DNA from: Escherichia coli
Lineage (GTDB): Bacteria; Pseudomonadota; Gammaproteobacteria; Enterobacterales; Enterobacteriaceae
NCBI RefSeq assembly: GCF_030013595.1
Contig: NZ_CP122768.1
DNA: 64,000 bases
Reading direction: 5' to 3' (one strand)
This document shows positions 4,183 through 64,000 of the stretch, piece after piece (the stretch's first letter is position 1; the number at the start of each line of letters is the position of its first letter). The notes beneath the pieces were generated by a model. It did not search any database. It worked only from the letters and a program-made list of their open reading frames with translations, and had not been told where the DNA came from. Made by a program: the position numbers and the translations under genes.

Positions 4183-4221
4183 CACGGACCGCACTCTTGA
4201 CATAAGAGTGCGGTCCGTGGA
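4183..4221. repeat. Perfect 17-bp inverted repeat with 5-nt loop (ccacggaccgcactctt gacat aagagtgcggtccgtgg)
   Basis: Read directly from sequence; GC-rich stem in an AT-rich noncoding segment; no adjacent T-run on either strand. Confidence 0.8.
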
Positions 4222-36295: not shown

Positions 36296-37483
36296 TTAGA
36301 ACTGGTAGACTAAGCCCACAGCTACGATATCATCGGTAGCGATGCCGTTTTCTTTGTAGAAGTCGTCGTCGTTGTCCAGCAGGTTGATTTTGTAATCAAC
36401 GTAGGTGGACATGTTTTTGTTGAAGTAGTAGGTCATACCAATATCAACATATTTAACCAGATCTTTGTTGGTGTAATGATGATTGCCCTGGCTGTCGAAG
36501 TTATCACTATTTACACCGCCTAAATCCTTACCTTTAGATTGCAGGTAAGCGATGGACGGGCGCAGACCGAAGTCGAACTGATACTGAGCAACCACTTCAA
36601 AGTTTTGGGTTTTGTTAGCGATCGCATCAGCATCACCGTAACCAGTCATGTTACGGGTTTCAGCATACATAGCTGCTAAGTAAACGTTATTAGCGTCGTA
36701 TTTAGCACCAACGGTCCATGCTTCTGCTGTTTCACCGCCAGCAGTTGCATCGAAGCGATCTCCATAACGAGTGTTATGAGTACCTTTGTGAACCTGATTG
36801 TCGGTACGGTCAGAGTTAGAGTAAGCAGCGCCCAGACTTAAACCAAAGTCAAAGTCATAGGAAGTGGACATACCGAAGCCGTCGCCGTTCTCTTTAGCTA
36901 ACTTACGGCCATTACCGTTACCAGAACCTTCCTGACCGAATAATCCATCATCTTCATTATTACCCTGATATTGCAGAGCAAAGTTCAGGCCATCGACCTG
37001 GCCAAAGAAGCCATTGTTACGGTAGGTTGCAACACCATTAGCACGACCGTTCATGAAGTTGTCGGCACCAGCATAGGTATCGCCACCAAATTCTGGCAGC
37101 ATATCGGTCCATGCTTCGATGTCATATACGACACCGTAGTTACGACCATAGTCGAAAGTACCATTCTGACCAAAGCCTAAACCTGCAAATGCCAGACGCG
37201 TTGCGGTATTACCTTTGTCGCTTTCAGGACCGTTTGCGCCAATGTTAAATTCCCACTGACCATAACCAGTGAATTGGTCAGCGATCTGAGTTTCACCTTT
37301 GAAACCGATACGGGCATATGACATGTCGCCATCGCTGCCAGCATCATCAGAGAAGTAGTGCAGGCCCGCTACTTTTCCGTACAAATCCAGTTTATTACCA
37401 TCTTTATTATAGACTTCAGCCGCATTTGCTGCGCCAGCAACTAATAACGCCGGGACCAGCATTGCCAGAACTTTTCTTTTCAT
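36296..37483 (-). CDS. yedS: OmpC/OmpF-family general porin, apparently intact
   Basis: About 395 aa from [21 protein letters not shown] with porin motifs through to the C-terminal ...GLVYQF. Confidence 0.85.
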
Positions 37484-37794
37484 TATGTATTCCCTTGTGA
37501 TTATAATCTTCATGAATATATCAATAAGTGCTGTTATCCAAAAAAAAGCACATTTGGATACTATTCTATGAAGTTCATTTTATTTTAAAGATTACATGTA
37601 ACAAATGTATTTAAAAGATTTCAAAATGTTTCCAATCTGTTTAATATAATTCAGAATTATGAATTCTGAATATAAATATTCACGAATATTATGAATGCAT
37701 ATCAATATGTTATGAGTTGAGCGGAAACATAGGGAGTATCAATGATTGTTGTGCTAAACGGCTGGTGTGATCTCGCGCACATTAATGAAGGCAT

Positions 37795-39214: not shown

Positions 39215-40633
39215 ATGCAGGAAAATATATCAGTAACCGATTTATACAGCACCGGGAATGCCGCACAGGCAATGCTGGAGAAACTGCTGCAAATTTATGA
39301 TGTTAAAACGCTGGTGGCGCAGCTTAATGGTGTGGGTGAGAATCACTGGAGCGCGGCAATTTTAAAACGTGCGCTGGCGAATGACTCGGCATGGCATCGT
39401 TTAAGTGAGAAAGAGTTCGCCCATCTGCAAACGTTGTTACCCAAACCACCGGCACATCATCCGCATTATGCGTTTCGCTTTATCGATCTATTTGCCGGAA
39501 TTGGCGGCATCCGTCGCGGTTTTGAATCGATTGGCGGACAGTGCGTGTTTACCAGCGAATGGAACAAACATGCGGTACGCACTTATAAAGCCAATCATTA
39601 TTGCGACCCGGCGACGCATCATTTTAATGAAGATATCCGCGACATCACCCTCAGCCATAAAGACGGCGTGAGTGATGAGGCGGCGGCGGAACATATTCGT
39701 CAACACATTCCTGAACACGATGTATTACTGGCGGGTTTTCCTTGTCAGCCATTTTCGCTGGCTGGCGTATCGAAAAAGAACTCGCTCGGGCGGGCGCATG
39801 GTTTTGCCTGCGATACCCAGGGCACGCTGTTCTTTGATGTGGTGCGCATTATCGACGCGCGTCGTCCGGCGATGTTTGTGCTCGAAAACGTCAAAAACCT
39901 GAAAAGTCACGATAAAGGAAAAACGTTCCGCATCATCATGCAGACGCTGGAGGAACTGGGCTATGACGTGGCTGATGCAGAAGATAACGGGCCGGACGAT
40001 CCGAAAATCATCGATGGTAAACATTTCCTGCCGCAGCACCGTGAACGCATCGTGCTGGTGGGGTTTCGTCGCGATCTGAATCTGAAAGCCGATTTTACCC
40101 TGCGTGATATCAGCGAATGTTTCCCTGCGCAGCGAGTGACGCTGGCCCAGCTGCTGGACCCGATGGTCGAGGCGAAATATATCCTGACGCCGGTGTTGTG
40201 GAAGTACCTCTATCGTTATGCGAAAAAACATCAGGCACGCGGTAACGGCTTCGGTTATGGAATGGTTTATCCGAACAATCCGCAAAGCGTCACGCGTACG
40301 CTGTCTGCGCGTTATTACAAAGATGGCGCGGAAATTTTAATCGATCGCGGTTGGGATATGGCCACGGGTGAGAAAGACTTTGACGATCCGCTGAATCATC
40401 AACATCGTCCACGTCGGTTAACGCCTCGGGAATGCGCGCGCTTAATGGGTTTTGAAGCGCCGGGAGAAGCGAAATTCCGCATTCCGGTTTCGGACACTCA
40501 GGCCTATCGCCAGTTCGGTAACTCGGTGGTCGTACCGGTCTTTGCCGCGGTGGCAAAACTGCTTGAGCCAAAAATCAAACAGGCGGTGGCGTTGCGTCAG
40601 CAAGAGGCACAACATGGCCGACGTTCACGATAA
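39215..40633 (+). CDS. dcm: DNA cytosine-5 methyltransferase (CCWGG)
   Basis: 472 aa with motif I FAGIGG and PCQ catalytic motif. Confidence 0.93.
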
Positions 40634-41084
40634 GGCCACACGCAGCAAAAATATGCGCGCAATTGCCACGCGTGATACGGCGATTGAGAAGCGTCTCGCC
40701 AGTTTGTTAACCGGGCAGGGACTGGCGTTTCGCGTTCAGGACGCCAGTCTGCCCGGACGCCCGGATTTTGTCGTTGATGAATATCGCTGCGTGATATTTA
40801 CCCACGGCTGCTTCTGGCATCATCATCACTGCTATCTGTTTAAAGTGCCTGCGACTCGAACCGAGTTCTGGCTGGAGAAGATAGGTAAAAATGTTGAGCG
40901 GGATCGCCGTGATATCAGTCGCTTGCAGGAGCTTGACTGGCGTGTACTGATTGTCTGGGAGTGTGCGTTACGTGGGCGCGAGAAGCTGACGGATGAAGCG
41001 CTTACCGAGCGTCTGGAAGAGTGGATCTGCGGCGAAGGTGCCAGCGCGCAGATCGACACGCAGGGGATTCATTTACTCGCTTGA
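40614..41084 (+). CDS. vsr: Very-short-patch repair endonuclease
   Basis: 156 aa from [17 protein letters not shown]; overlaps the dcm 3' end in a different frame. Confidence 0.92.
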
Positions 41085-41993
41085 TGCGTCCTGAATAACT
41101 GGCGCAACTACGGGTTTGGCCGGGAAGAGATATTTTCCCAACGTGACCAGTACCACTGCGAAGACAATTACGCCGAGCGCCAGCCATTCAATCTTCGACA
41201 GCGTCTCTCCGCCCAGTCCCGTACCCAGCAAGACCGCGACCACCGGGTTAACGTAGGCGTAGCTGGTGGCGAGAGCCGGACTGACGTTGCGGATTAAATA
41301 CATATAAGCGTTAATGGCGATAATCGAACCAAACAGCGCCAGATAGCCGACCGCAAGGAAGCCTGAAAGGGAAGGGAGCGCCGTCAGTTTTTCACCCGCA
41401 ATTATCGACGCGATCATTAACACCACGCCTGCCGCCAGCATCTCAATCGCACCCGCCATCATCCCTACAGGTAAGGTAATGCGCGAGCCATAAACCGAGC
41501 CAAACGCCCAGCTAATCGAGCCGATTAAAATCAGAATCGCGCCCCACGGATTGCCGCTTAAATTTCCACCGCTATTGAGCATGATGATTCCGGCAAGCCC
41601 AATGGCGATACCCACCCATTCCAGTTTGCGCGTTTTAATGCCAAACAGGCGGCTGAAGCACAGGGTAAAGAGGGGCACGGTTGCAACCACTACGGCGGCG
41701 ATGCCGGAAGGAACATTTTGATGTTCGGCAACCGTCACCATGCCATTACCGACAGCCAGCAATAACAGGCCAATCAGCGCGGCATTGAGCAACGGACGTA
41801 GCGGGGGGAGTTTGTGTCCGCGCAGTAGCAAAAATGCCAGCAATAAAATACCGGCTGCCAGGAATCGAACGCCCGCCATCATTAACGGAGGCCAGCTTTC
41901 CACGCCAATCCGAATGACAAAATAGGTTGAGCCCCAAATGATATACAACGCAAACAGCGCGCCAAAAAGCGGTAACAACTGGCGGAAACGCAT
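41073..41993 (-). CDS. yedA: EamA/DMT-family transporter
   Basis: 306 aa, ten predicted helices. Confidence 0.88.
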   Translation of the reverse strand: MRFRQLLPLFGALFALYIIWGSTYFVIRIGVESWPPLMMAGVRFLAAGILLLAFLLLRGHKLPPLRPLLNAALIGLLLLAVGNGMVTVAEHQNVPSGIAAVVVATVPLFTLCFSRLFGIKTRKLEWVGIAIGLAGIIMLNSGGNLSGNPWGAILILIGSISWAFGSVYGSRITLPVGMMAGAIEMLAAGVVLMIASIIAGEKLTALPSLSGFLAVGYLALFGSIIAINAYMYLIRNVSPALATSYAYVNPVVAVLLGTGLGGETLSKIEWLALGVIVFAVVLVTLGKYLFPAKPVVAPVIQDASSE

Positions 41994-42165
41994 AATCCCT
42001 CACGGTGGAAATAAAAAGGTGGGTCATAGTAAACGTGAAAATCATTCTGCTGGCGAGAGATATAATTGCACTTGATTGTTAAAAAAATGTTGACCTGTGA
42101 AGCAAGTATCAGAGCTGCCGTTTTTGCTTCATACTTACACCCTTCAACAATAAAAATGAGAGGGA

Positions 42166-43083
42166 ATGCTTTTGGCCGGGAGTAGTTTACTGACGTTGCT
42201 CGATGATATCGCCACACTGCTGGACGATATTTCCGTGATGGGCAAACTGGCGGCGAAGAAAACCGCCGGTGTATTAGGGGATGACTTATCGCTCAATGCG
42301 CAACAAGTTTCAGGCGTGCGGGCCAACCGGGAACTTCCCGTGGTCTGGGGCGTGGCGAAAGGATCGCTGATCAATAAAGTGATTCTGGTGCCGCTGGCGC
42401 TGATCATCAGTGCGTTTATCCCGTGGGCGATTACGCCACTGTTGATGATTGGCGGCGCGTTTCTCTGCTTTGAAGGGGTAGAGAAAGTGCTGCATATGCT
42501 GGAGGCGCGTAAACATAAAGAAGATCCGGCGCAGAGTCAGCAACGTCTGGAGAAGCTGGCGGCGCAGGATCCGCTGAAGTTTGAAAAGGACAAAATAAAA
42601 GGGGCGATTCGTACCGATTTTATATTGTCTGCGGAAATTGTCGCCATCACGCTGGGGATTGTGGCCGAAGCGCCGTTGCTTAATCAGGTGCTGGTGCTTT
42701 CAGGCATCGCGCTGGTAGTGACCGTGGGCGTCTACGGTCTGGTAGGGGTTATCGTTAAGATTGATGACCTGGGGTATTGGCTGGCGGAAAAATCCAGCGC
42801 ACTGATGCAGGCATTAGGTAAAGGGTTATTGATCATTGCGCCCTGGCTGATGAAAGCGTTATCGATTGTCGGCACGCTGGCGATGTTCCTCGTCGGCGGT
42901 GGGATTGTGGTACATGGAATTGCGCCGCTGCATCACGCCATTGAACATTTCGCCGGGCAGCAAAGTGCAGTGGTGGCGATGATATTACCGACTGTTTTAA
43001 ATCTGATTCTTGGTTTTATCATCGGCGGCATCGTGGTGCTGGGAGTGAAAGCAGTAGCGAAAATGCGTGGTCAGGCACATTAA
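42166..43083 (+). CDS. yedI: DUF808-family inner-membrane protein
   Basis: 305 aa; conserved position. Confidence 0.85.
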
Positions 43084-43161
43084 TACTCGCACTGGCTATT
43101 ATGCAAAATTCGCCATCTTCAACTAAGGTGAACAAGTTTCACTCGAAAAAAGGAGGCGAGT

Positions 43162-43404
43162 ATGAGCTTTATGGTTAGTGAGGAAGTTACGGTTAAAGAG
43201 GGCGGCCCGCGGATGATTGTCACTGGATACTCCAGCGGTATGGTTGAGTGTCGTTGGTATGACGGTTACGGGGTCAAGCGGGAAGCTTTTCATGAAACCG
43301 AGCTTGTTCCGGGGAGGGGAGTCGTCCTGCGGAAGAAGTTTGAAAGGGTATCATTAACACCAGGCCGGATCACATCCGGCCTGGTGTACCAATGCCTGCA
43401 ATGA
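43162..43404 (+). CDS. yodC: Small conserved protein (YodC family); true start may be internal
   Basis: 80-aa ORF MSFMVSEEVTVKEGGPRMIVTGY... Confidence 0.7.
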   Translation: MSFMVSEEVTVKEGGPRMIVTGYSSGMVECRWYDGYGVKREAFHETELVPGRGVVLRKKFERVSLTPGRITSGLVYQCLQ

Positions 43405-43513
43405 ATGATAGTCGCGTCTTATCATGCCACCATTATAAAATTATCGCTGTTTTGCGGTACGTTATCGCCGGGTTATGCCAGAATCATAAAAAAGCAGGTT
43501 GGGTGTCGTCAGG

Positions 43514-46038
<2,525 letters not shown>

Positions 46039-46217
46039 TTACCAGGATGATTCTCAAAACAGCACAAATTATCAAAGATGATTTTTTCGGGAGCGATCCC
46101 GTTGACGCCAGAGCCACCAAGGGGTGACGCGCGTCACATTTCTATTCATAAGTAGCGTTAATCATTCATATCACGAATATTTTCTTGTCAGCGAAAAAAA
46201 TTGCGGATAAGGTGATG

Positions 46218-46305
46218 AACACATCAGATTTCCTGGTGTAACGAATTTTTTAAGTGCTTCTTGCTTAAGCAAGTTTCATCCCGACCCCCTCAGGGTCGGG
46301 ATTTT
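46218..46305 (+). ncRNA. dsrA: DsrA small regulatory RNA
   Basis: AACACATCAGATTTCCTGGTGTAACGAATTTTTTAAGTGCTTCTTGCTTAAGCAAGTTTCATCCCGACCCCCTCAGGGTCGGGATTT matches DsrA, including the terminal stem-loop and T-run. Confidence 0.92.
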
Positions 46306-46317
46306 TTTATTGTGCAT

Positions 46318-46545
46318 TCAACGATTCACTTCAGAGACGCTGAAGTCATGAATATCCAGTTCGAAGGCATCCGCCAATTCACGCCATGTATGATATTCAC
46401 GTCCATCGACGCTAACGTGTTCAGAATCGTTCTGGCTGCGATGAACTTCGCTTTCGCTAATTTCATTGATCGCCGCCAGCAGGGCATCGACATCGACGCT
46501 GACCTCACGTTTTGCGGTATCGCTGTACTCTTTTGCGGTTTTCAT
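46318..46545 (-). CDS. yodD: Stress-induced small protein
   Basis: 75 aa from MKTAKEYSDTAKREV. Confidence 0.85.
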   Translation of the reverse strand: MKTAKEYSDTAKREVSVDVDALLAAINEISESEVHRSQNDSEHVSVDGREYHTWRELADAFELDIHDFSVSEVNR

Positions 46546-46617
46546 CATCTTTCCTCGCAACCGTTACTCTGTTGTTGCCGCCAGTCGTTAAGTCCGCCTG
46601 GCATCTCTTAAGTATAG

Positions 46618-46896
<279 letters not shown>

Positions 46897-46939
46897 TTTA
46901 ATTCAGCCTGACTGGTGGGAAACCACCAGTCAGAATGTG

Positions 46940-47563
46940 TTAGCGCATGTTGACAAAAATACCATTAGTCACATTATCCGTCAGTCGGACGACATGGTAG
47001 ATAACCTGTTTATTATGCGTTTTGATCTTACGTTTAATATTACCTTTATGCGATGAAACGGTCTTGGCTTTGATATTCATTTGGTCGGAGATTTGAATGG
47101 TTCCCTGACCTGCCATCCACATTCGCAACATACTCGATTCGGTTCGGCTCAATGATAACGTCGGCATATTTAAAAACGAGGTTATCGTTGTCTCTTTTTT
47201 CAGAATATCGCCAAGGATATCGTCGAGAGATTCCGGTTTAATCGATTTAGAACTGATCAATAAATTTTTTCTGACCAATAGATATTCATCAAAATGAACA
47301 TTGGCTATTGCCATAAAAACGATAAATAACGTATTGGGATGTTGATTAATGATGAGCTTGATACGCTGACTGTTAGAAGCATCGTGGATGAAACAGTCCT
47401 CATTAATAAACACCACTGAAGGGCGCTGTGAATCACAAGCTATGGCAAGGTCATCAACGGTTTCAATGTCGTTGATTTCTCTTTTTTTAACCCCTCTACT
47501 CAACAGATACCCGGTTAAACCTAGTCGGGTGTAACTACATAAATCCATAATAATCGTTGACAT
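46940..47563 (-). CDS. rcsA: Capsule synthesis co-activator RcsA (LuxR-type HTH)
   Basis: 207 aa, [24 protein letters not shown]... with C-terminal LuxR HTH. Confidence 0.92.
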
Positions 47564-47852
47564 GGCATACCCTCACTCAATGCGTAACGATAATTCCCCT
47601 TACCTGAATATTTCATCATGACTAAACGGAACAACATGGGTCACCTAATGCGCCACTCTCGCGATTTTTCAGGCGGACTTACTATCCCGTAAAGTGTTGT
47701 ATAATTTGCCTGGAATTGTCTTAAAGTAAAGTAAATGTTGCGATATGTGAGTGAGCTTAAAACAAATATTTCGCCGCAGGAGTATCCTGGAAGATGTTCG
47801 TAGGTATTATTTTTCGGATAATCCTTAGGATAACATGATAAACGTTACGGAA

Positions 47853-48638
47853 TTATATTAATGGCAATTCACTAATAATATCAGCCAGCAAATTAAAAAT
47901 TTCACTGAATAAATGTTCGCAAAAAGGCGCAATTAACGGCATTAATGCCGCCATTAAAGAGATGCCGACAGTCAGAGTTAATGGAAATCCAATAACAAAA
48001 ATGGATAATTGCGGGGCCATACGATTAAGTAAACCTAATGCCAGATTCAGTGTCAGCAGCAGAGTAATGAGCGGTAACGCCAGCATCAGCCCGTTAAGGA
48101 AAATCAAACTCCCTGCTTTGGTGAGTGCCAGAAACGCATTGCTGTTCAACGGTTCGCCACCAATCGGCAGGGTGTGAAAGGTATCGACCAGCAGTGAAAT
48201 CAACCATAAATGACCGTTAAATGTCAGGAACAGCAGTAACGCCAGCATATCCATGATACGCGCTAAAACGGGCATATTAAGATGGCTGGCCGGATCGACA
48301 AATGTCGCAAATGACAGCCCCATTTGCAGACCGATAATTTCGCCAGCGGTTCGCACAGCGGCAAAGGCAAATTGCATGGTAAAACCAAGCGCAATGCCGA
48401 TCAGGATCTGCTGCACGGCCAGCCACAGAGCAAAGAACGAAAAAACAGGAACATCGTTGGCAGGTAATGATGGGGCAATGGCGAACGTGATCATCATTGC
48501 CAGACCCAGTTTTACCCGTTTCGGTACGCTACGTTCGCTCAGAATTGGCGCGGTAGAAATGAGCGCCAGCACGCGCAGTAACGGCCAGAAGTACAGACTT
48601 AGCCAGGATAGCCATTGATCGCTTGTCACCTGCAACAT
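47853..48638 (-). CDS. fliR: Flagellar export apparatus protein FliR
   Basis: 261-aa membrane protein at the end of the fliLMNOPQR operon. Confidence 0.92.
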
Positions 48639-48646
48639 TGTACGGG

Positions 48647-48916
48647 CTACCCGATGATATACGGCAGGTTAGTGAACAAGGTGCGGACGTAATCCAGCAA
48701 CAGATTGAGCATCCACGGTCCGGCAATAATAATGGCGATAAATACGGCGATGATTTTCGGAATAAACGACAGCGTCATTTCGTTAATCTGCGTGGCGGCC
48801 TGCAAAATACTGATGATAAGGCCCGTGACCAACGCTACCAACAATAGCGGGGCAGCCAGTGCCAGCGCGACTTTCATCGCTTCAGTCCCCATCATCATGA
48901 CCGATTCAGGTGTCAT
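48647..48916 (-). CDS. fliQ: Flagellar export apparatus protein FliQ
   Basis: 89-aa membrane protein. Confidence 0.92.
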
Positions 48917-48925
48917 TTTGCCTCT

Positions 48926-49663
48926 CTAGCTGTAAAAGCTCTGCGCCAGCGAACCGACCAGCAATTGCCAGCCATCCACCAGTACAAACAGCATCAGTTT
49001 AAAGGGCAGAGCAATGGTGGCTGGGGGAACCATCATCATCCCCAATGCCATCAACACGCTGGCAATCACCAGGTCGATAATCAAAAAAGGAATGAAAATC
49101 GTGAAGCCTATCTGAAATGCGGTTTTCAACTCGCTGGTCACGTAGGCCGGGAGCAAAATGCGCATCGGCACGGCTTCAGGTCCCTGCAACGGGCCAGTAT
49201 TTGCCAGTCTGGCAAACAACCCTAAATCCGCCTCACGGGTCTGACGCAGCATAAACTCACGCAGCGGCTGCGCCCCTTTTTCCAGCGCCTCCTGCATTGA
49301 TATTTTCTCTTCGCTGAATGGCTGGTACGCATCGACATAAATTTTATCGATCACCGGCGACATAATAAAAAAGGTCAAAAACAGCGCCAGCCCCAGCAAT
49401 ACCTAGTTAGGTGGTGCGGAGGGCGTTCCCAGCGCGTTACGCAATAAACCAAAAACAATGATGATGCGAGTGAAACTGGTCATCATCAGTAAAATTGCCG
49501 GAATAAACGTCAACGAGGTGATGAACACCAGCGTCTGCACCGGGAGCGACCAGCTTTGTCCACCGCCAGGCAGCGGCTGGCTGGTGATACCCGGCAGTTG
49601 CGCGAAGGCGAGGGGCGTAACCAGCCAGAGAAGGACAGGTGCGACAGACAACAAACGACGCAT
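48926..49663 (-). pseudogene. fliP: Flagellar export apparatus protein FliP with in-frame amber codon at 49403..49405 (codon 87)
   Basis: Reading frame is ...[23 protein letters not shown]...; the conserved sequence continues unbroken in the same frame after the stop, giving an 86-aa fragment plus a 157-aa downstream ORF. Confidence 0.85.
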
Positions 49664-50028
49664 CAGGATCTCCCGCTACGCTTAAGCAAGTTTTTCATGA
49701 CCGACTGAAAATCGGTCTGCGGTATCTCTTCCGTTGGTGCTGAAGGGGGAAGTTTATGCAGCAGATTGATTTGCCCAGCGGTAACGCCGAGCACCAGCCG
49801 TGCATCTTCTACATCGACCACCACGACCCGTTCACGCGCGCCCAGCGAAGCACTGGCGCTAATTTTCAGACCGTTAACGCCAGTGCGTTTCGGGGCAAAT
49901 CCCAGCCGTTTTACCAACCAGGCAGCAGCGAGGATCAGGGCAATAATGGCGATGAGTGCGCCGCTCACCTGCAGCAGTGGCGCAGCAGAAACCGGCGCGG
50001 AAGATTGCACAGTAGCGTGGTTATTCAT
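49663..50028 (-). CDS. fliO: Flagellar export apparatus protein FliO
   Basis: 121 aa from MNNHATVQ. Confidence 0.88.
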
Positions 50029-50030
50029 CA

Positions 50031-50444
50031 CTAACGGCTCAGGCGACGCATCCGCTCAGACGGAGTAATGATATCGGTGATCCGCACGCCATATTTATCA
50101 GCGACTACGACAACTTCGCCCTGAGCAATTAAATAACCGTTGATCAGAATATCCAGCGGTTCGCCCGCCAGACCGTCCAGCGCCACGACGGACCCTTGCG
50201 TCAGACGCAACAGCTCTTTGATGGTCATCCGCGTACGGCCCAGCTCGACGGTCAGCTTGACCGGAATATCCATAATCAGGTCGATATCCTGCAACGTTCC
50301 GCTGACATCACCACCGCCAAATTGCTGGAACACCGCGTCGGCAGCGCTTTTGCTGCTGGTTGATTTTTGTTCGCTCAACGCTTCAGCCCACAGATCGTCC
50401 ATTGCGCCGTTGTTGTCATCGGCCGGATTATTCATGTCACTCAT
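50031..50444 (-). CDS. fliN: Flagellar motor switch protein FliN
   Basis: 137 aa. Confidence 0.92.
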   Translation of the reverse strand: MSDMNNPADDNNGAMDDLWAEALSEQKSTSSKSAADAVFQQFGGGDVSGTLQDIDLIMDIPVKLTVELGRTRMTIKELLRLTQGSVVALDGLAGEPLDILINGYLIAQGEVVVVADKYGVRITDIITPSERMRRLSR

Positions 50445-51445
50445 TTGGGCTGTTCCTCGTTCAGAGAATTTAAAATCGGGTTAATCAAATGTTCTATCCG
50501 TAACGCATACTGGCCGTTGAGAGTGCCGTACTGACTGGTCAGCACCGGGACGCCGTCAACATGGGCGATGATGCGATCGGGTTTTTCTATCGGCAGGACG
50601 TCGCCGGGTTTCAGTTTTAAAATCTGCGACAGGCGTAGCGAGATATCGGCAAAGTTGGCGACCAGCTCCAGCTGCGAATGCTGCACCTGGCGCACCAGGT
50701 TATCGCGCCAGTTCTGATCTTCATTACGCGAGTTTTCCAGCGGCGGGTTAACCAACAATTCCCGTAGCGGCTCGATCATGCTGAATGGCAGGCAGATATT
50801 AAATTCGCCTGTCAGGTTGCCAATCTCCACATGGAACGGCGTGTTAACCACGATGTCGTTCGGCGAGGTGGTGATATTGGTAAATTTCACCTGCATTTCC
50901 GAACGCACGTACTCAACTTCCAGCGGATTAATCGCCTTCCAGGCGTCGCTATAGCCTTCAAGCGCCAGCTTTAACATGCGGTTGATGACGCGCTGTTCGG
51001 TATGGGTAAACTCGCGACCTTCCACTTTGGTCGGGAAGCGTCCATCGCCGCCAAACAGGTTATCCACGGCGATAAACACCAGACTCGGTGAGAACACCAC
51101 CAGCCCTGTGCCGCGCAGCGGTTTCAGATGGATAAGGTTCAGGTTGGTCGGCACCGGCAGGTTGCGGGCAAATTCATGGTACGGCTGAATGCGGATGGCC
51201 CCGACGGTAATGTCCGGGCTACGGCGCAGCAGGTTGAACAGCCCCATACGAAAATGGCGGGCAAAGCGCTCATTAATGATTTCCAGCGCCTGCAAACGTT
51301 CGCGCACAACCCGTCGTTGGGTATTCGGATCGTACGGACGAATGTCACTTTCGCCGCTAACACTGGCTGTCGGTTCGTCTTTGACTTCGCTGTCACCATT
51401 CAACAGCGCATCAATTTCAGCTTGAGAAAGAATACTATCGCCCAT
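50441..51445 (-). CDS. fliM: Flagellar motor switch protein FliM
   Basis: 334 aa from MGDSILSQAEIDALL. Confidence 0.92.
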   Translation of the reverse strand: MGDSILSQAEIDALLNGDSEVKDEPTASVSGESDIRPYDPNTQRRVVRERLQALEIINERFARHFRMGLFNLLRRSPDITVGAIRIQPYHEFARNLPVPTNLNLIHLKPLRGTGLVVFSPSLVFIAVDNLFGGDGRFPTKVEGREFTHTEQRVINRMLKLALEGYSDAWKAINPLEVEYVRSEMQVKFTNITTSPNDIVVNTPFHVEIGNLTGEFNICLPFSMIEPLRELLVNPPLENSRNEDQNWRDNLVRQVQHSQLELVANFADISLRLSQILKLKPGDVLPIEKPDRIIAHVDGVPVLTSQYGTLNGQYALRIEHLINPILNSLNEEQPK

Positions 51446-51449
51446 GTCG

Positions 51450-51914
51450 TTATCGCAGAATAAAAGCGGTATACAGCACGTCGGTGACATCCTGTTTCGG
51501 TTGCCCGGCAACAAGCGGGGTGGAAAGTGTGGTTTTAATCTCGGCAATCAGTTTTTTCTTGCCTTCTTCTGTCGCCAGTACGGCAGCATCCTGACGCGAA
51601 AACAGTAACAGCAAACGGCTACGGACTTCCGGCAAATACTCACTCAGCCGCGAGCGGGTAGCTTCATCTTTCAGGCGCAGGGTTATGCCGATATAAAGCA
51701 CGCGATCCGCATCGCCCAAATTGACCGTAAAGGTATCCAGCGCATAGAAGACCGGTGAGGGCACGACGCGTTGCTGCGCTTTGTCTTCAGCGGCAACCTG
51801 ATGCGAATGCCAGTAGCTGTAACCTGCGCTGGCACAGGCCGCGAGGGTAATGAATACCAGAATCGGGATCCAAAGCGATCGCTTGCTTTTCTTGCTTATC
51901 GCGTAATCAGTCAT
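51450..51914 (-). CDS. fliL: Flagellar basal-body-associated protein FliL
   Basis: 154 aa with a single TM segment. Confidence 0.9.
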
Positions 51915-52018
51915 GTGTTGCGGTCTTCCTGTGTCGCTACTGCTTATCGGCTAATTATCCTGCGTCTTGAGCGCAACAAAGCGGGGAAAAGACGCGGATT
52001 ACGGTGCTACCTCTGACG

Positions 52019-53146
52019 TTAGGCGAAAATATCAACGCCGCTGTTGCCTGTTACACGCCCTTGTAAAGAGACGGGAACCGGAAGCGTATCGTCGTCTTCC
52101 CCCGCCAGAGGTTCATGGTTTTCTGTGCGTTGGCTTTGCTGTTGTTGGGAAGCAGCCTGCTGCTGACCACTAAAGCTTTCGCCACTGATGTTGCTTTGCC
52201 CTAACTGAATGCCACTTTCGGCCAGCTGCGTACGCAGTACCGGAAGCGCTGCTTCCAGGGCGGCGCGTACGTGTTGATGCGGTGAAACCATCTGGATTTG
52301 CGCCTGGTTATCATCCACTTTGAGGGAGATTTGCACTTCACCTAAATCCTGTGGGTGCAGACGCAACTCTGCACTTTGTTGCCCCTGGCGGGTGAACAGC
52401 GAAATATGCTGGCTTAATGATTGTTGCCATTCGTGAGAACCCAGCGGTGCACTCAAAACAGGCGCGGCGACGGTAGGCAGTGGCTGTGTCTGGTGTGGAG
52501 TGATTAGCGGGCTGGCGGCAGCAGTCACCGGCGAAGGTGTGCTGATGACTTCCGCTTTACTCTGGGCTTCTGCTACCAGCGGTGTTAATGGCTGAGCTGG
52601 TGTGCTGGGGGCGTCATCAGGCTGTGCTGTTGTGAGTTGCGCAGAAGTCAGTTTTGTGAAGAGCGTTGGTTTCTCTGTCGGTAACACGGTTGACGGCACA
52701 TCAGTCACTTTGGGCGTATTGTCAAAACCCGGCAACATCGCAAAAAGAGCGCTCAGGCTTGCGGTGACGTCTTCATTAAGATCATCCGCTTTTTCGTCTT
52801 TTGTCGTATTGTTGTCAGCCGCCGCAGCCAACGTTATCGTCTGAGCGGTGGTTAACGGTGTTGATGTGGATTGTTCGTCGTTGATGACAGGCGGTGTTTC
52901 ATCCACAGGGATCAGTAAATCCGCTTGTTGCGCGTCTGAAAGAATATCGCTGACCAGCGGCTCGCCTTTTGTCGTGGGCTTATCTGTTGCCACCAGCAAC
53001 TGGGGAGTCGCTTTGTCGGTTGTTGCCTCGCCTGTTAATGCTTCGCTCAACAACGCGAGAAAATCTTGTGCAGCATCGCTGGCTTTGCCGCCAGGCAATG
53101 TGGCGTTATCAACGTCAGCGGTAATCAAGGGCGCTATGCGAATCAT
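52019..53146 (-). CDS. fliK: Flagellar hook-length control protein FliK
   Basis: 375 aa, Pro/Thr/Gln-rich. Confidence 0.9.
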
Positions 53147-53586
53147 TCAGGTTTCCTCATGGCGGCGCGCTGGGCGAACTCATCCATCTTTTTCTGATCG
53201 AGGCGGTTTTCTGCAAGCAGTGCCGCCGTGGATTGCCGTTCCTGCAGTGTCTGCCAGGCCTGCAAACGTTGTTTCTTTTCTCGCCAGCTGTTCAGGGCAA
53301 TGTCAACTTTCTGCGTCCACTGATTAAGTTGCTGGCGATGCTGAGTAATGGCTTTTTCCAGCGTCTGGATAAACTGCTGATAGTTGATCCAGCGGTTGCT
53401 GGTCATCCCGGCACTCATATCGCTATTGAGGTTATTGCGATATTCATTCTGATAATCGATCAGCATTTTGAGCTGTTCTTCCGCCTGCTGACATCCGCGA
53501 CGCATTTCACCCAGCAGGCGCGCGGCATCCTCTACCTCTTTTTCTGCCAGATCTTTCAGGGTCGCCAGCGCGCCATGTTCTGCCAT
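53143..53586 (-). CDS. fliJ: Flagellar export chaperone FliJ
   Basis: 147 aa coiled-coil protein. Confidence 0.9.
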
Positions 53587-53604
53587 CTGCCGTTATCTCC
53601 TGGG

Positions 53605-54977
53605 TTATGACACTGTCGGGAAAATACGCTCCAGCCCCTGGAGAGACGCTTCCCAGTCCGCGCGTTCAAAAATGCCTTGTTGCAAATAGCCCTCCAGCTG
53701 CGGCCACAGGGCGATGGCTTTGTCGAGCATCGGATCGCTGCCTTTGGCATACGCGCCGACGCTAACCAGATCGCGGTTACGCTGAAAACTCGACAACAGC
53801 TGTTTGAAGGTGCGCACTCGCGCGTAATGTTGCTCACTGATCAACGCCGTCATTGCGCGGCTGATCGACGCTTCAATATCGATAGCCGGATAGTGCCCGG
53901 CTTCCGCCAGTCGGCGAGACAGCACAATGTGACCGTCGAGGATGGCCCGCGCGGAGTCGGCAATGGGGTCCTGCTGGTCATCGCCCTCGGTGAGCACGGT
54001 ATAAAACGCGGTAATCGATCCGCCGCCGCTAATGCCATTTCCGGCACGCTCGACCAGTGCCGGTAATTTGGCAAACACCGACGGTGGATAGCCTTTAGTG
54101 GCAGGTGGTTCGCCAATCGCCAGCGCAATCTCACGCTGGGCCATCGCGTAGCGGGTGAGGGAGTCCATAATCAGCAACACATGCTGACCACGATCGCGAA
54201 AATCTTCGGCAATGCGTGTGGCATAGGCGGCACCCTGCATTCGCAGGAGCGGAGAAACATCCGCCGGAGCGGCAATCACCACGGAGCGTGCACGCCCTTC
54301 GGCACCGAGGATATTCTCAATAAAATCTTTTACTTCGCGCCCACGTTCACCAATCAAACCCACGACAATGACATCGGCGCGGGTGTAACGTGCCATCATC
54401 CCCAGCAGCACACTTTTACCAACGCCGGACCCGGCAAACAGCCCCATACGCTGCCCGCGCCCGACGGTAAGCAGGGCATTGATTGGGCGCACGCCGGTGT
54501 CCAGCACATGTTCAATCGGTGTACGTTGCAACGGGTTAAATGGCGGGGTGATCAGCGCACCGGTTTCCGTCGTATCGGGGGAGGGGAGGCCATCGAGCGG
54601 TTTACCGCTGCCATCCAGAACGCGACCTAATAACGCCGGACCGAGCGGCAACTGCTTGCCGCTTTGCAGTCCTTCAGTCGAAATGTTTTTGGCATAAACA
54701 CGCGCGCCGGGCAGGACACCTTCCACTTCCTCCAGCGGCATTAAAAACAGCCGTTGACCGTTAAAGCCAACGACTTCGCTTTCTACTTCGTGAGTTTCGC
54801 TGCCGTTCTGGCGCTCAATCACACAGGTTGCGCCGAGCGGCAATTGTAATCCGGTGGCTTCCAGCACCAGCCCGGTAGCGCGAGTTAATCGCCCGTAGCG
54901 ACGTACCGCAGGCAACTGCGCCATTTTAGCTTCGAAGTTATCCAGCGTGGTTAGCCAGCGAGTCAGGCGCGTGGTCA

Positions 54978-54978
<1 letters not shown>
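53605..54978 (-). CDS. fliI: Flagellum-specific ATPase FliI
   Basis: 457 aa with Walker A GSGVGKS. Confidence 0.93.
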
Positions 54979-58303
<3,325 letters not shown>

Positions 58304-58517
58304 CGCGCACCTCGTGGCTGATTATGGACGGCGTTATTGGCAAAGTGGAACAAGACTCACTCCCGGGTCAGCAAACTCGAAAAATTGACGCTCCCATTAT
58401 TTGTGCTTTCGTTTTTTTCTATCCGCCAATAAACCCGTTTTTTTGTTGCTATTTAGCGCCTTTGTCTTATTGACTTACTGGTAGGCTTTGCTACCAGAAA
58501 TTATCCGGGAGATGAAA
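58304..58517. promoter_or_regulatory. Divergent fliF / fliE promoter region (class 2 flagellar promoters)
   Basis: Intergenic region between divergently transcribed fliF and fliE; assigned by position and known flagellar regulation, motifs not resolved by eye. Confidence 0.5.
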
Positions 58518-58832
58518 ATGTCAGCGATACAGGGGATTGAAGGGGTTATCAGCCAGTTACAGGCTACGGCGATGAGTGCGCGTGCACAGGAATCACTGCC
58601 GCACCCGACCATTAGTTTTGCCGGGCAGCTGCACGCCGCGCTCGATCGCATAAGCGATACACAAACAGCCGCCCGCACGCAGGCAGAAAAATTCACCCTC
58701 GGTGAACCCGGCGTGGCGTTAAACGATGTGATGACCGATATGCAAAAAGCCTCAGTTTCTATGCAAATGGGGATTCAGGTGCGTAATAAGCTGGTGGCGG
58801 CGTATCAGGAAGTGATGAGCATGCAGGTGTAG
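58518..58832 (+). CDS. fliE: Flagellar hook-basal body protein FliE
   Basis: 104 aa from [10 protein letters not shown]. Confidence 0.9.
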
Positions 58833-59236
58833 GTTTTGTAACCTGTTGTTAATTACATCCGATCTCACCGCGTGGGGCATGGATGGGGCAAACTCACTCA
58901 ATTTCTGGTTTAAAATGGAAACCTGATTCTGAAAGTTTTCTGCCATCCACGATCCGTAAACGCGATAAACCCTCTGTTCATCAGAGTGTCTCATTTGACA
59001 CATCACCACGTCGGATGTTGTTACGACCACAGACGCAACAGTAACGTTTGGATAATTTAATCTTTGTTGATGTTTTTATTCATATTCCGGGCAATGGAAA
59101 TAATTAGGCATAATTGTGTCACTGGAATAGAGGTTTCTTGTGGCGCATGTGGAAGGAGCGTCTAAGGACAAGACATATGCGGCTGGTGATGAATAAAGGC
59201 GTAGCACGTCGAATGCAAGAATGTGCTGCGTCTGGC

Positions 59237-59716
59237 TCATGGCAATTCATTATTTTCGCATAGCGTCAATGACAAAAATCGACTGTGTGGATCAAGTTGA
59301 TAATCAGCAAACGGTTCGCAATCAACGAAACCATGCTTCAAATAAAGTTGATGGCAGGCCGTAAATCCAGCCTGTGTACCCGTTTCTAAGCTCAGGCGAT
59401 GAAGGCATCTGTCATGGGCGACCTGCAAAATGTGGCGTAAAATCAGACTGGCGACACCTCGACGTAAATAATTTGGCGCGGTACGCATTGATTTCAGTTC
59501 GCCATGTTTATCATCCAGCAACTTCAGCGCACCAATTCCTGCGAGTTGTTCGCCTTCCCATACTGACCAGAATGTCACTGTCGGGTTACGTAATTTTTGC
59601 ACATCTAAAGCATGACTGCTTTCGGGGGGAGACTGCTGCAGCATGCCGGAAATATGGTAAGCCACTAATGCTTGCACTGCTGGATGGGTGAGATCATCTG
59701 TTTTAATCGTGAACAT
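59237..59716 (-). CDS. yedL: GNAT-family N-acetyltransferase
   Basis: 159 aa. Confidence 0.85.
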   Translation of the reverse strand: MFTIKTDDLTHPAVQALVAYHISGMLQQSPPESSHALDVQKLRNPTVTFWSVWEGEQLAGIGALKLLDDKHGELKSMRTAPNYLRRGVASLILRHILQVAHDRCLHRLSLETGTQAGFTACHQLYLKHGFVDCEPFADYQLDPHSRFLSLTLCENNELP

Positions 59717-59826
59717 GACGATTCCGTATTGGTGTTATTTTTGCAATATGCCAACAGGTACTGAAATCTTTGTCTAATAGAGATTTCTTATGACGCAGTA
59801 TTGTTGATCAATAATCTCCAGGCTTA

Positions 59827-60495
59827 TCAGATAGGTTGAATTAACTCCGCTCCCTGGTTTTTAACATTACCCACCGCGCGCGATACCGGGTGCTAGGTGA
59901 ACTGGTTTGCTGGCACACAGCCACTGGTAGCGATTTCTGAGGCTTCTTTACCGCCAATATCTTGCCGCATCCATTCCCGCGCAGCTTCTGGCGACAGTAC
60001 CAGTGGGCGGCGGTCATGAATATCTACCAGACCCTGGTCTGCTGCTGCAGTGACAATCAAAAATCCTTCGGCTTCGTCACCGCGCTCGAACGGTGTGCTG
60101 CCTATCGCGGCCATAAAAACAGGTTGTCCGTCAGCGCGATAGATAAAATAAGGCTGTTTTTTGTCGCCTTCTTTTTTCCACTCAAACCAGCCGTCGGCAA
60201 AACAGATTGCCCGACCGTGTTGCCAGAGCGGTTTAAACATGCGACTGGTTGCGGCAGTTTCTACGCGGGCGTTAATCAGCGGCGGTTTATCCCACCATCC
60301 GGGAGCATATCCCCAGAAAACCGGATCCAGATGAAGGTGTTCATCACGTTCACTGAGCAGAAGAACTTTGGTTCCCGGCGCGACGTTGTATCTGCCAATG
60401 GGTTCGGGATCGTAGGGAATATCGCGTTCAATATCTTCCGCGAGAAGCGCAAGGTAATCTTCACGCGTTTGGGATTGGGCAAAGCGTCCACACAT
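59827..60495 (-). pseudogene. yedK: SRAP/SOS-response-associated peptidase homologue with premature amber codon at 59893..59895 (after residue 200)
   Basis: N-terminal MCGRF catalytic-Cys motif; after the TAG the same frame stays open for 21 more codons (HPVSRAVGNVKNQGAELIQPI) before TGA, consistent with a truncated conserved C-terminus. Confidence 0.7.
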
Positions 60496-60601
60496 AGCAA
60501 CCTCCTGAGATCATACTGAAAAGAATAGGAGAGGGGGCGGGTAAAATCTATGTGTCAGAGGCAACGATGTTCCCGCTGTGGGCCACAGCGGGAATGAGGG
60601 A

Positions 60602-60835
60602 TTACTTCTGAATTAAATAACGAATGGTCGGCCCGTCTTGCTGAATATCCAGCACCGTATAGCCGTGATTACGCGCATCCAGTGGAATATTATTGATCGA
60701 CTGCGGACAGTCGCTCACCACTTCCAGGATCTCACCTTTTTTTAATTGCGGCATCGCCTCAAGGGTTGCGACTGCCGGATAAGGGCAGGGTTCACCCACC
60801 ATATCAAGGCGGTAATCAGGAACGATATTTTTCAT
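60602..60835 (-). CDS. yedF: TusA-like sulfurtransferase-fold protein
   Basis: 77 aa with CPxP motif (GEPCPYPAVAT). Confidence 0.88.
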   Translation of the reverse strand: MKNIVPDYRLDMVGEPCPYPAVATLEAMPQLKKGEILEVVSDCPQSINNIPLDARNHGYTVLDIQQDGPTIRYLIQK

Positions 60836-62037
60836 GCGATCTCCTTAGCAGTCTGCGGTGCCGCACGGAGGAAGAAGCGTTTTTCCCAGCCGATAATCAA
60901 CATCAGCGCAGCAAACAACAGCAAATATGTCACCAGCAGGCCACCCATCGGACCAAAGGTTTTCAGTAGGTTGATTTTGTCCCAGTCGGTGGCCAGCGCC
61001 GGAGCGAAATCATCCCAGTAGTACGCCAGAATCGTTGAGCCGATCACGTTGCCCAGACCGACCCACCAGTAGTGCACCTGGCCTTCTACCGCGCGGTACA
61101 TCCAGCCGGTTTCGCAGCCGCCTGCCAGCACGATGCCAAAACCAAACAGTAAACCACCAATTACCGCGTTTGGTCCTGCCCACATGATTTTGGGTTCAAC
61201 GCCTAACTGTACGTAACTGAAGATCCCGATGGCACTTACCGCCATACCGATAATGATTGCTTTCGCCATATGGGTACGTCCGGTGATCCACATATCGCGG
61301 AACGCCGAAGTAAAGCAGATTTGCGCACGTTCAATCAGTAAACCAAAGCCGACGCCAAACAGCATTGCCAGCCCCAGTTTGGGCTGGTTCATCGCCGTCA
61401 GCAGCGCCCAGCCCAGCATGCCGAAAAAGACCAGCATCCCGAGACGAAAACGACGCCGCGCCTGATCCGGTTTTTGCGTCAGCGGCGAGGCGGCAGAAAC
61501 TTTCTGCATTTTCACGGGAATACGGAAGATGGGCAGCAGGGTAAAGCGCGCGCCAAACCATGAACCAATGGCAGTGGCGATGGCAAAGAACCAGGCGTGC
61601 AGCGAGAACTGAGGAATGCCGGTAAAGAACGCCGCCAGGTTACAGCCCATTGCCAGACGCGCGCCAAAACCGGCGATAATGCCGCCAATGATGGCCTGCA
61701 TAATGCGGATACGGCTGCGCGGCATGCGTAGTTTGATATTGTTGGCCCACAGCGCTGCGGCAAAGCAGCCGCCAAACATACCGAGGATCATCATCCCGTC
61801 GATGCGGGTTAATGGCGATCCTTCCAGATGGATAATTTTAAAGTAACCCCACTCTTCAGCATGGACGCCAAACAGCTGCAGGAGCTGACCGCCCCAACGG
61901 GTAAATTCACCCGTGACAGCCCAAAAGGTGCCAGTAATGCCAAAATAGTAAGTGGAGAGAATACCCGCCGCGATGACCGCAGGGATGGGTGCCCAGAATT
62001 TAATCAACCAGGCGTGTTTGAATTGCTGCCATGACAT
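60832..62037 (-). CDS. yedE: YeeE/YedE-family membrane transporter (selenium/thiosulfate-related)
   Basis: 401-aa polytopic membrane protein, start overlapping the yedF stop. Confidence 0.88.
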   Translation of the reverse strand: MSWQQFKHAWLIKFWAPIPAVIAAGILSTYYFGITGTFWAVTGEFTRWGGQLLQLFGVHAEEWGYFKIIHLEGSPLTRIDGMMILGMFGGCFAAALWANNIKLRMPRSRIRIMQAIIGGIIAGFGARLAMGCNLAAFFTGIPQFSLHAWFFAIATAIGSWFGARFTLLPIFRIPVKMQKVSAASPLTQKPDQARRRFRLGMLVFFGMLGWALLTAMNQPKLGLAMLFGVGFGLLIERAQICFTSAFRDMWITGRTHMAKAIIIGMAVSAIGIFSYVQLGVEPKIMWAGPNAVIGGLLFGFGIVLAGGCETGWMYRAVEGQVHYWWVGLGNVIGSTILAYYWDDFAPALATDWDKINLLKTFGPMGGLLVTYLLLFAALMLIIGWEKRFFLRAAPQTAKEIA

Positions 62038-62223
62038 GAATGTAGCCTCTGAACTCAGAAGGTTTGAAACAAGAGTCGCGAATCATACATCATGCACATT
62101 TATTTTCGGGGTAATAATTCACAAAAATAATAGTTAGATCAAATTTCTCTCTGAACCTGGAAAGGCTGGCGACATCAGGGCTTTAATGCCACAATCCTCT
62201 TTTCTTCTCATGCAGGACGAATG

Positions 62224-62637
62224 ATGAAAAAACTCGCAATTGCAGGCGCGCTCATGTTGCTGGCGGGCTGTGCCGAAGTCGAAAACTATAACAATGTCGT
62301 GAAAACCCCCGCGCCGGACTGGCTGGCGGGCTACTGGCAGACCAAAGGGCCGCAACGTGCGCTGGTCAGTCCGGAAGCGATAGGCAGCCTGATTGTCACT
62401 AAAGAGGGCGATACCCTCGATTGCCGTCAGTGGCAGCGGGTGATTGCCGTGCCGGGTAAATTGACATTGATGTCTGATGATCTCACTAACGTTACCGTAA
62501 AACGTGAGCTGTACGAGGTTGAGCGTGACGGTAACACCATTGAGTACGATGGTATGACGATGGAGCGTGTGGATCGCCCGACGGCAGAGTGTGCCGCCGC
62601 GCTGGATAAAGCGCCGTTACCGACGCCACTGCCGTAA
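62224..62637 (+). CDS. yedD: Lipoprotein YedD
   Basis: 137 aa with lipobox LLAGC. Confidence 0.85.
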   Translation: MKKLAIAGALMLLAGCAEVENYNNVVKTPAPDWLAGYWQTKGPQRALVSPEAIGSLIVTKEGDTLDCRQWQRVIAVPGKLTLMSDDLTNVTVKRELYEVERDGNTIEYDGMTMERVDRPTAECAAALDKAPLPTPLP

Positions 62638-62670
62638 TGAAATCTCCCCGGCTTGCCGCCGGGGATGAAT

Positions 62671-64000
62671 TTAAATCACCTCTTCGATAACCCACACGCT
62701 GACGCTGCCGCCGTTGCAAAAGAAGGTCGCTTCGCCGTTTTCGTCAGTCACTACGCTCTCTTGCCGGTTCCCCAGAAAATCACGCCAGGTTTTATTGCCG
62801 TAATTCTCTCCCAGATGAATGGTTTTTTCGCCATCATCCCCGTTCGACATGACCACCACGCAGCCGGGATATTCGTCAGTGCCACTGCGGCTAAAGGCAA
62901 TGCAGTTCGGATGGTCGAAAAATAACGTCTGTACACCGTGGGCGAAACGCTGACGGGCGAGAATTAACTCATCAAGCTGTTCGATTATTGGCATATCTAT
63001 CGGATAGGTTTGCCCGTCACCACCGACATCTTCGTAATGCGCACCGTAGAGGTCCGGATAGAACACCGAAGGAACGCCATTTTCCCGCAACAAAATTAGA
63101 GCATACGCCAGCGGTTTAAACCACGGTTCGACCGGCGCTTCGAGGGCTTGCAACGGTTGGGTGTCATGATTGGCAACGAGGGTTACGGCGTGGAAAGGAT
63201 CGGCTTCCACTAATGTACCCGTGAAAATCTGCGTCATGTCGTAGTCGCGCCCCATGCGCGATGCTTCATGGAATTTCATCTGCAGCGGCGCATCAAACAG
63301 CATGGTTTTGCCTTCCACCTGATCAATATACGTTTGCAGTTTATCGACTTCATGCGACCAGTATTCAGCCACAATAAATAGCGGCTTTGGTGCAACTTCC
63401 TGTACGTGTTCGATCCACTCTTTATAAAACCACGCCGGAATATGTTTGACCGCATCAAGACGAAAACCGTCGCATTGCGTTTGTTCCATCACCCAGCGCG
63501 CCCAGTATTTAATCTCTTCCGTCACGGCATGATTGCGGAAATCGATATTCTCGCCCATCAGGTAATCGAAATTACCGAGTTCATCATCAACCTGATCGTT
63601 CCAGCCTTCGCCGGTGTAGTCGTTAACAATTTTAAAAATGCCATCTTCATCAGGGTTTTCGATATGGTCGATACCGCTAAAACATTTAAAATCCCAGATA
63701 AACTGCGAGTATTGCCCGGCACGTGCGGGGAAGGTGTAACGCGTCCAGCCTTCGCACTCAATGATTTCTTCGTCAATTTGCGTACGATCGTCAGCATTTA
63801 CACGCTGCACGCGAATAGCTTCTTTTTCATCCGCGCCCATTTTGTGATTGACTACCACGTCCAGCAGCACCGCAATGTCATTACGTTTCAGAGCGTCAAT
63901 GGCGGCCAGCAGTTGTGTTTTATCGCCATATTTAGTAGGGATGCTGCCTTTCTGATCAAACTCGCCTAAATCAAATAAATCATAGGAGTCGTAGCCGACC
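62671..64000 (-). CDS. amyA: Cytoplasmic alpha-amylase (GH13), 5' end beyond the window
   Basis: More than 399 aa of GH13-like sequence with an open frame continuing upstream to the window edge. Confidence 0.85.

Follow-up and report, generated by a model that had tools for sequence, protein, structure and literature searches.

An amber codon in the flagellar gene fliP of a natural Escherichia coli clone, probably arisen by 5-methylcytosine deamination at a Dcm site

Introduction

The flagellar gene fliP is interrupted by a single in-frame stop codon in the Escherichia coli chromosome analyzed here (contig NZ_CP122768.1 of assembly GCF_030013595.1). By what kind of mutation did this stop arise, does it belong to a natural population, and what would it mean for flagellar assembly? 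These questions were addressed on a stretch of 64,000 nt of that contig (hereafter the window), by comparison with complete E. coli genomes and with public assemblies.

The bases around the stop point to one possible answer. Dcm methylates CCWGG sequences, deamination of the methylated base leads to a T:G mismatch, and Vsr very-short-patch repair restores the original pair (PMC2715241; PMC9520237). According to the account given in PMC9520237, Cherry (2018) found C-to-T changes at the inner C of CCWGG to occur at an 8-fold higher rate across thousands of genomes of natural E. coli and Salmonella.

Results

fliP is interrupted by one amber codon

Flagellar region III of E. coli lies on the minus strand of the window, and fliP occupies 49663..48926 on that strand. 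Around the stop the minus strand reads ...GCA CCA CCT AAC TAG GTA TTG CTG GGG..., where the TAG is codon 87 of fliP. The gene is thereby presented as two open reading frames that share one frame, one of 86 aa with an ATG start (49403..49663) and one of 157 aa that runs from a TTG (48926..49399). The original prediction, which had described fliP as split by a single TAG into ORFs of these two lengths, was confirmed in both frame and coordinates. The positions of the features discussed below are compiled in Table 1.

In a profile search with the FliP equivalog model TIGR01103 (197 positions), the N-terminal fragment covered positions 1-40 and the C-terminal fragment positions 43-197. When Gln87 was restored, the protein aligned over residues 1-245 with Salmonella FliP (PDB 6F2D, chain A; E = 5e-138), and in this alignment Q87 sits in the conserved GTPSAPPNQ loop. 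The gene is found between fliO and fliQ in the fliLMNOPQR operon, and the order fliM-fliN-fliO-fliP-fliQ-fliR is that of annotated references. Both the profile and structure matches (TIGR01103, PF00813) and the operon position are those of a FliP/SctR export-gate subunit; the reading frame is not uninterrupted, and by annotation standards a gene with a TAG at codon 87 is a pseudogene. Codons 88-245 have kept the frame, and the amino acids that they specify are identical to those of reference FliP, although they are cut off from translation. A chance pattern of ORFs was considered and ruled out, as the TAG interrupts a genuine conserved gene.

Table 1. Coordinates of fliP, its neighbors and the Dcm-related features in the window
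Feature	Position	Strand	Remarks
fliP codons 1-86	49406..49663	-	signal peptide, first transmembrane helix and loop ...GTPSAPPN; sole normally translatable part
Amber codon in place of Gln87 (CAG)	49403..49405	-	mutated base 49405, plus-strand A, ancestral G
Former Dcm site	49402..49406	-	now CTAGG, ancestrally CCAGG; altered at the inner C
fliP codons 88-245 and natural stop	48926..49402	-	TM2, periplasmic domain, TM3 and TM4; TIGR01103 43-197, 247.7 bits
fliQ	48647..48916	-	intact, identical to reference; downstream of fliP in the same operon
fliR	47853..48638	-	intact, identical to reference; downstream of fliP in the same operon
fliF-G-H-I-J-K-L-M-N-O	49663..58303	-	upstream of fliP, all intact
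dcm	39215..40633	+	472 aa, full length; NF007772, 947 bits, residues 1-469; methylates CCWGG
vsr	40614..41084	+	156 aa, intact; TIGR00632, 178.5 bits; identical to reference protein
yedK	59827..60495	-	SOS-response-associated peptidase, SRAP family
yedK amber codon	59893..59895	-	Trp201, TGG to TAG
Second putatively deaminated Dcm site	59893..59897	+	CTAGG, ancestral CCAGG; C-to-T at 59894

The stop is a derived C-to-T transition

Among complete genomes, the closest to the window is NZ_CM149870, from pig isolate HCP5S3_I2, with 99.9% identity over window positions 28785-64000 and 25 SNPs and 2 indels in that interval. Plus-strand position 49405 is G in this genome and A in the window, which on the coding strand corresponds to CAG versus TAG, and fliP contains no indel. 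At codon 87, the closest genome and all other haplotypes examined have CAG, and comparison with the outgroup GMF065 shows that TAG is the derived state. Two further claims of the original prediction thus hold: that the lesion is a one-codon substitution rather than a frameshift, since there is no fliP indel relative to NZ_CM149870, and that the wild-type codon was CAG, changed by a C-to-T transition, for which the alignment to E. coli references and the outgroup provide the polarity. Judged from the sequence, fliP of this genome is a recent pseudogene produced by one C-to-T transition.

The allele was looked for in complete RefSeq E. coli genomes. None of them matched this fliP at 100%, the best being six genomes at 99.9% (one mismatch in 738 nt), and none of them contained a perfect match to an 81-nt query centered on the TAG.

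The transition affects the inner cytosine of a Dcm site

The ancestral codons 86-88 of fliP, AAC-CAG-GTA, contain CCAGG, which is a Dcm site, and the base that mutated is its inner C. This context is missing from the original prediction. Codon 87 is the only codon of fliP where deamination at a Dcm site can yield a stop. The dcm and vsr genes are located in the same window, 9 kb from the fliP stop.

The following chain of events may be proposed. Dcm would methylate the inner C of the CCAGG at codons 86-88, as the motif and the intact dcm gene suggest. Spontaneous deamination of this 5-methylcytosine would give thymine and hence a T:G mismatch. If the mismatch were missed by Vsr very-short-patch repair, CTAGG would become fixed, and in the fliP frame CTAGG would be read as TAG (amber) instead of Gln87. 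It is probable, in our opinion, that the Q87 amber codon is the product of such a 5-methylcytosine deamination, that it was fixed in a natural clone, and that hotspot behavior of the site accounts for the independent appearance of the identical allele in many other lineages of E. coli.

The window carries a second change of the same kind. Two of the 25 SNPs that separate it from the closest genome are C-to-T changes at Dcm inner cytosines, and both created amber codons (fliP Q87 and yedK W201). The yedK stop removes 22 residues, and it was found in the same clone and on at least one unrelated background (L082). With Dcm-methylated cytosines accounting for 0.5% of positions, the probability of two or more such matches by chance is P = 0.007 for the whole set, and 5e-4 for the 7 window-derived SNPs in 40000-64000.

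The same amber codon has arisen repeatedly

In public assemblies, an in-contig TAG at fliP codon 87 was observed on at least 11 distinct fli haplotypes, every pair of which is at least 20 SNPs apart in 2.2 kb. These are the haplotype of the window clone, L003, L005 and L006 (FliP Val15), L007-L012 (Ile15) and L017 (Asn27). Variable sites flank the stop as near as 10 nt upstream and 14 nt downstream. Because the haplotypes are distinct and vary this close to the stop, recombinational spread of one ancestral allele is implausible, and the mutation has arisen repeatedly. The Dcm context of the mutated C would explain why exactly this mutation recurs on at least 11 backgrounds.

For comparison, in-contig stops on distinct nucleotide backgrounds were counted at sites outside Dcm context. 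In fliP, real stops were obtained on 3 backgrounds for Q124am, 2 for Q132am, 2 for Q160am, 4 for W232 to TAG and 2 for W232 to TGA. The controls were those with the highest contig counts, so that the fliP comparison is conservative. A second Dcm-context codon was available in fliM: at Q253 (CGC-CAG-GTG, equivalent to window ~50687..50689, where the window itself is wild-type CAG) a real TAG was present in all 10 places listed (L087-L096), on at least about 9-10 backgrounds. At fliM Q255, which is two codons from Q253 and not a Dcm site, there was 1 real TAG among the 24 contigs read. Hence the six non-Dcm nonsense paths ranged from 1 to 4 backgrounds, versus 11 for fliP Q87 and at least 9-10 for fliM Q253. 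The mean number of backgrounds per site was 10.5 in Dcm context and 2.3 elsewhere (binomial P = 1e-5; Mann-Whitney P = 0.03), with approximate counts: 24 blocks with the longest contigs were read per query and similar places were collapsed, the fliP Q87 total pools three protein backgrounds, and some controls were looked up on one. On these approximate counts, recurrence above that of non-Dcm sites accompanies the other marks of a Dcm hotspot, namely an ancestral CCWGG mutated at its inner C, a derived C-to-T change and a full-length dcm.

Raw contig counts (113 and 36 for Q87, versus 0-21 for the controls) were rejected as a measure of recurrence, as they mix an over-sampled clone with partial genes at contig ends. 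Indeed, L013-16 and L018-21 end at fliP codon 86 but are wild type or undetermined, and contig-end partials occur at every truncation length. The idea that contigs ending at the fliP stop reflect a within-sample C/T polymorphism was likewise discarded, given that the same pattern is seen at control sites.

When 5426 complete genomes were searched with 55-nt probes for each of the 19 transition-to-stop changes of fliP (with five haplotype versions for Q87), no genome was found to carry any of them. This negative result is real, because the same probe design found yedK W201am in 16 of the 5426 genomes. The fliP transition-nonsense alleles are individually rare in complete genomes, and a collection of this size is too small for a site-to-site comparison.

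A single event would not be assigned to deamination with certainty, because C-to-T is the commonest substitution and non-Dcm nonsense sites in fliP recur on 2-4 backgrounds. An ordinary C-to-T replication error to which methylation is unrelated might have generated the stop, and such stops might come to light, and recur, only because cells frequently pay no price for lacking flagella or even gain from it (by saving energy, by escaping recognition of flagellin, or under laboratory passage). G:C to A:T transitions form the commonest substitution class, and the non-Dcm fliP alleles, each on its 2-4 independent backgrounds, indicate that fliP loss is tolerated and has been sampled repeatedly. We nevertheless consider this explanation unlikely. 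All stops in one gene are equally null, so that selection gives no preference for a site and the differences between sites reflect mutation rate, whereas the Dcm codons (fliP Q87 and fliM Q253) show ~4-5 times more independent events, even relative to fliM Q255. Furthermore, 2 of the 7 window-derived SNPs coincide with the small fraction of positions that are Dcm-methylated cytosines. Deamination at the Dcm site therefore remains our preferred origin of the fliP stop.

The clone is predicted to be non-flagellate

The stop at codon 87 removes about 80% of the conserved FliP domain. Translation would halt once the signal peptide and first transmembrane helix had been made, and no FliP subunit would be produced. 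The FliP5-FliQ4-FliR1 export gate would then fail to form, and flagellar assembly would be blocked at its earliest step despite the intact fli genes. The clone is thus predicted to be non-flagellate and non-motile. The earlier view of FliP as an essential export-gate subunit, and of a non-flagellate state as its consequence, is reasonable as a prediction.

The other flagellar genes give no sign of damage. As previously claimed for the 13 remaining fli genes of the window, fliE, F, G, H, I, J, K, L, M, N, O, Q and R have reference lengths and no internal stops. On a contig of the same clone (L083), fliC (550 aa), fliA, fliD, fliS and fliT were called at full length, and the fliC of the clone is identical to that of the closest genome. 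It is possible that the fliP stop has a polar effect and reduces expression of fliQ and fliR. The intactness of the other flagellar genes in the clone would be explained by a recent origin of the stop and equally by continued function.

Continued function would require that the amber codon be decoded often enough for motility, by a suppressor tRNA, by near-cognate Gln readthrough, or by re-initiation at the TTG 4 nt downstream to give a split FliP. The flagellar genes seen in the clone, fliE-R other than fliP together with those called on L083, are intact, as such a reading would have it. In addition, only 4-5 FliP subunits are needed per basal body, and Gln inserted at UAG yields the wild-type protein; low-level insertion by a near-cognate Gln-tRNA may therefore regenerate wild-type FliP and result in a leaky phenotype. 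Several observations make decoding at a level sufficient for motility improbable. The only suppressor-capable tRNA gene in the window, serU (the supD locus), has the wild-type CGA anticodon. The search for amber-suppressor tRNAs covered the window, in which the four tRNA-Asn genes are irrelevant in this respect and outside of which glnV/glnX, tyrT, leuX and the remaining candidates are located. To our knowledge, amber suppressors are not normally present in wild isolates of E. coli. No convincing ribosome-binding site precedes the downstream TTG or ATG. Finally, with 0-2 SNPs per 14 kb the clone is of very recent origin, and intact neighbors are expected at this age even if the flagellar system is dead. 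A non-flagellate clone is therefore the outcome that we continue to predict.

We also considered whether the in-frame Dcm sites at fliP Q87 and fliM Q253 could serve to switch motility in a crude, semi-reversible manner, with deamination producing non-flagellate CTAGG (amber) variants at a raised rate and Vsr driving the reverse change. The dcm-vsr pair does lie in the same chromosomal neighborhood as the fli genes. Vsr was reported to stimulate CTAGG-to-CCAGG mutation (PMC2715241), and, as its repair favors G, it would be expected to restore CCAGG from the T:G heteroduplexes formed when wild-type DNA recombines in. Such a putative switch seems very doubtful to us; if it were real, E. coli populations would always keep a small flagella-less reserve, for instance for immune evasion.

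The allele marks a young natural clone

The stop is not confined to one assembly. An independent NCBI assembly (L004) has the TAG and, over 6261 nt, a single SNP relative to the window; 20 further similar places were collapsed with it. Over 14.1 kb, identity to the window is 100% for L084 and 99.99% for L083. In general, the near-identical independent assemblies that carry the TAG allele show 0-2 SNPs per 6-14 kb. The exact 86-aa FliP product is present on 113 public contigs, one of them 1.59 Mb long (STE71561.1). The fliP TAG has therefore become fixed in a young natural clone and marks it; more than 20 independent assemblies belong to this clone.

The gene content of the window is that of an ordinary E. 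coli chromosome (cobUST, four asn tRNA genes, yeeJ, serU, zinT, hprRS, dcm-vsr, dgcQ, rcsA, fli, yedK and amyA), and its nearest relatives are E. coli from pig, cow and duck. The original prediction had likened the lesion to those of Shigella/EIEC or of mutagenised laboratory strains, and this part was not upheld, the nearest relatives being livestock E. coli and the allele being fixed in a natural clone. There is little to be said for an early step of Shigella/EIEC-style reductive evolution, or for laboratory mutagenesis, and we give these proposals hardly any credence. Non-motile pathovars do carry inactivated flagellar genes, and beyond the fliP stop the shared 35 kb shows two small lesions relative to the closest genome, the second amber codon (in yedK) and a 1-nt deletion in yodC. 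However, the closest genomes are commensal or livestock E. coli, the allele is common to many field assemblies, no other flagellar gene of the window is damaged, and the fliC, fliA, fliD, fliS and fliT genes of the clone are full length. The multiple flagellar lesions, IS-mediated decay and invasive-pathovar background of the Shigella/EIEC type were not found here. As to mutagenesis, both stops bear the signature of spontaneous 5-methylcytosine deamination and not a mutagen-wide spectrum.

A sequencing or assembly error in a single assembly would account for a one-base difference from the closest complete genome, but it has next to no chance of being the explanation here, because near-identical independent assemblies of the clone, from different projects, share the stop (L004 with its 20 similar places, and the 113 contigs); the stop is not an error, and it marks a natural clone.

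Discussion

Amber hotspots at CCAGG sites of lacI were reportedly described by Coulondre, Miller, Farabaugh and Gilbert in 1978, and work by Lieb on 5-methylcytosine hotspots is cited in PMC2715241. The fliP event resembles these hotspots in that the inner C of CCAGG is changed to T to give CTAGG, in that an in-frame C-CAG-G becomes an amber codon, and in that Vsr repair counteracts the change. It differs from them in its setting: lacI served as a reporter gene in laboratory K-12, whereas the fliP event concerns an essential flagellar gene, in a natural clone and on many wild backgrounds. The 4-5-fold excess at fliP Q87 and fliM Q253, which comes from a handful of sites and an approximate count, has the same direction as, and a size similar to, the 8-fold rate attributed to Cherry (2018) in PMC9520237. 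Such a mechanism is textbook knowledge, and natural populations have already been reported to show it at work; the present observations refine known biology rather than change it.

With respect to function, the clone can be compared with the fliP null and ring-assembly mutants of Salmonella, in which the same protein is affected and loss of FliP assembly abolishes flagellar type III export (PMC5542437; PDB 6F2D). Those mutants are engineered alleles with measured phenotypes, whereas the phenotype of the clone is predicted from sequence.

Non-motile lineages include Shigella, with flhDC lesions, and sorbitol-fermenting O157:NM, with a deletion in flhC. The clone resembles non-motile E. coli and Shigella with flagellar pseudogenes in that one early or regulatory gene is inactivated while the regulon is mostly intact, the loss of motility in the clone being a prediction. 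Unlike in Shigella/EIEC, the gene and the type of mutation are other ones, there is no sign of IS expansion or of multiple lesions, and the relatives are ordinary livestock strains. Our literature searches found no published amber or pseudogene allele of fliP in E. coli.

The locus has some practical bearing. An annotation of this genome should flag fliP as a pseudogene, and typing is predicted to find the clone non-motile (H-negative) even though its fliC is intact. Since this amber codon has come up again and again in unrelated E. coli, the sharing of an identical flagellar pseudogene allele is no evidence of common descent, a point of relevance to typing and outbreak work. The allele would also illustrate, in a natural setting, the influence of Dcm methylation on the spectrum of loss-of-function alleles, and fliP Q87 and fliM Q253 offer a testable pair of sites for methylation-driven mutation in natural populations.

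Additional observations

Other truncations of fliP are common in public E. coli and Shigella assemblies (L042-L044, L062-L065; P0003, P0054, P0080). Stops at W232 were seen on six backgrounds, a 222-aa form on 338 contigs (Shigella flexneri included), and products of 91 aa and 133 aa on 201 and 356 contigs, respectively. IS insertions or contig breaks probably account for part of these.

All the coding changes derived on the branch of the window in 40000..64000 alter a protein, with 0 synonymous changes: Dcm Q395H, FliP Q87*, FliK A342E, YedK W201* and YedE R390L. Five nonsynonymous changes out of five, a small number, are typical of very recent clonal divergence. Dcm Q395H (window 40399, G to T) is derived in the lineage relative to the outgroup, and the same lineage has the two putatively deaminated Dcm sites within 24 kb. 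Another derived SNP (43504) is located 10 nt upstream of the start of dgcQ.

The yodC deletion is in a G run near 43310 (yodC, 43162..43343) and is seen relative to both the closest genome and the outgroup. It puts the last ~10 codons of YodC (60 aa) out of frame, and could be real or a homopolymer sequencing error.

Positions 1..6000 of the window match repeated DNA in almost every E. coli genome, with a median of 18 places in each. The annotation of the corresponding segment of a related genome shows IS1, IS66 and IS4 fragments and pseudogenes beside cobUST. An OmpC-family porin gene (36296..37513, minus strand, 405 aa) is intact in the window; in the closest complete genome it has an 11-bp deletion and is annotated as a frameshifted ompC.
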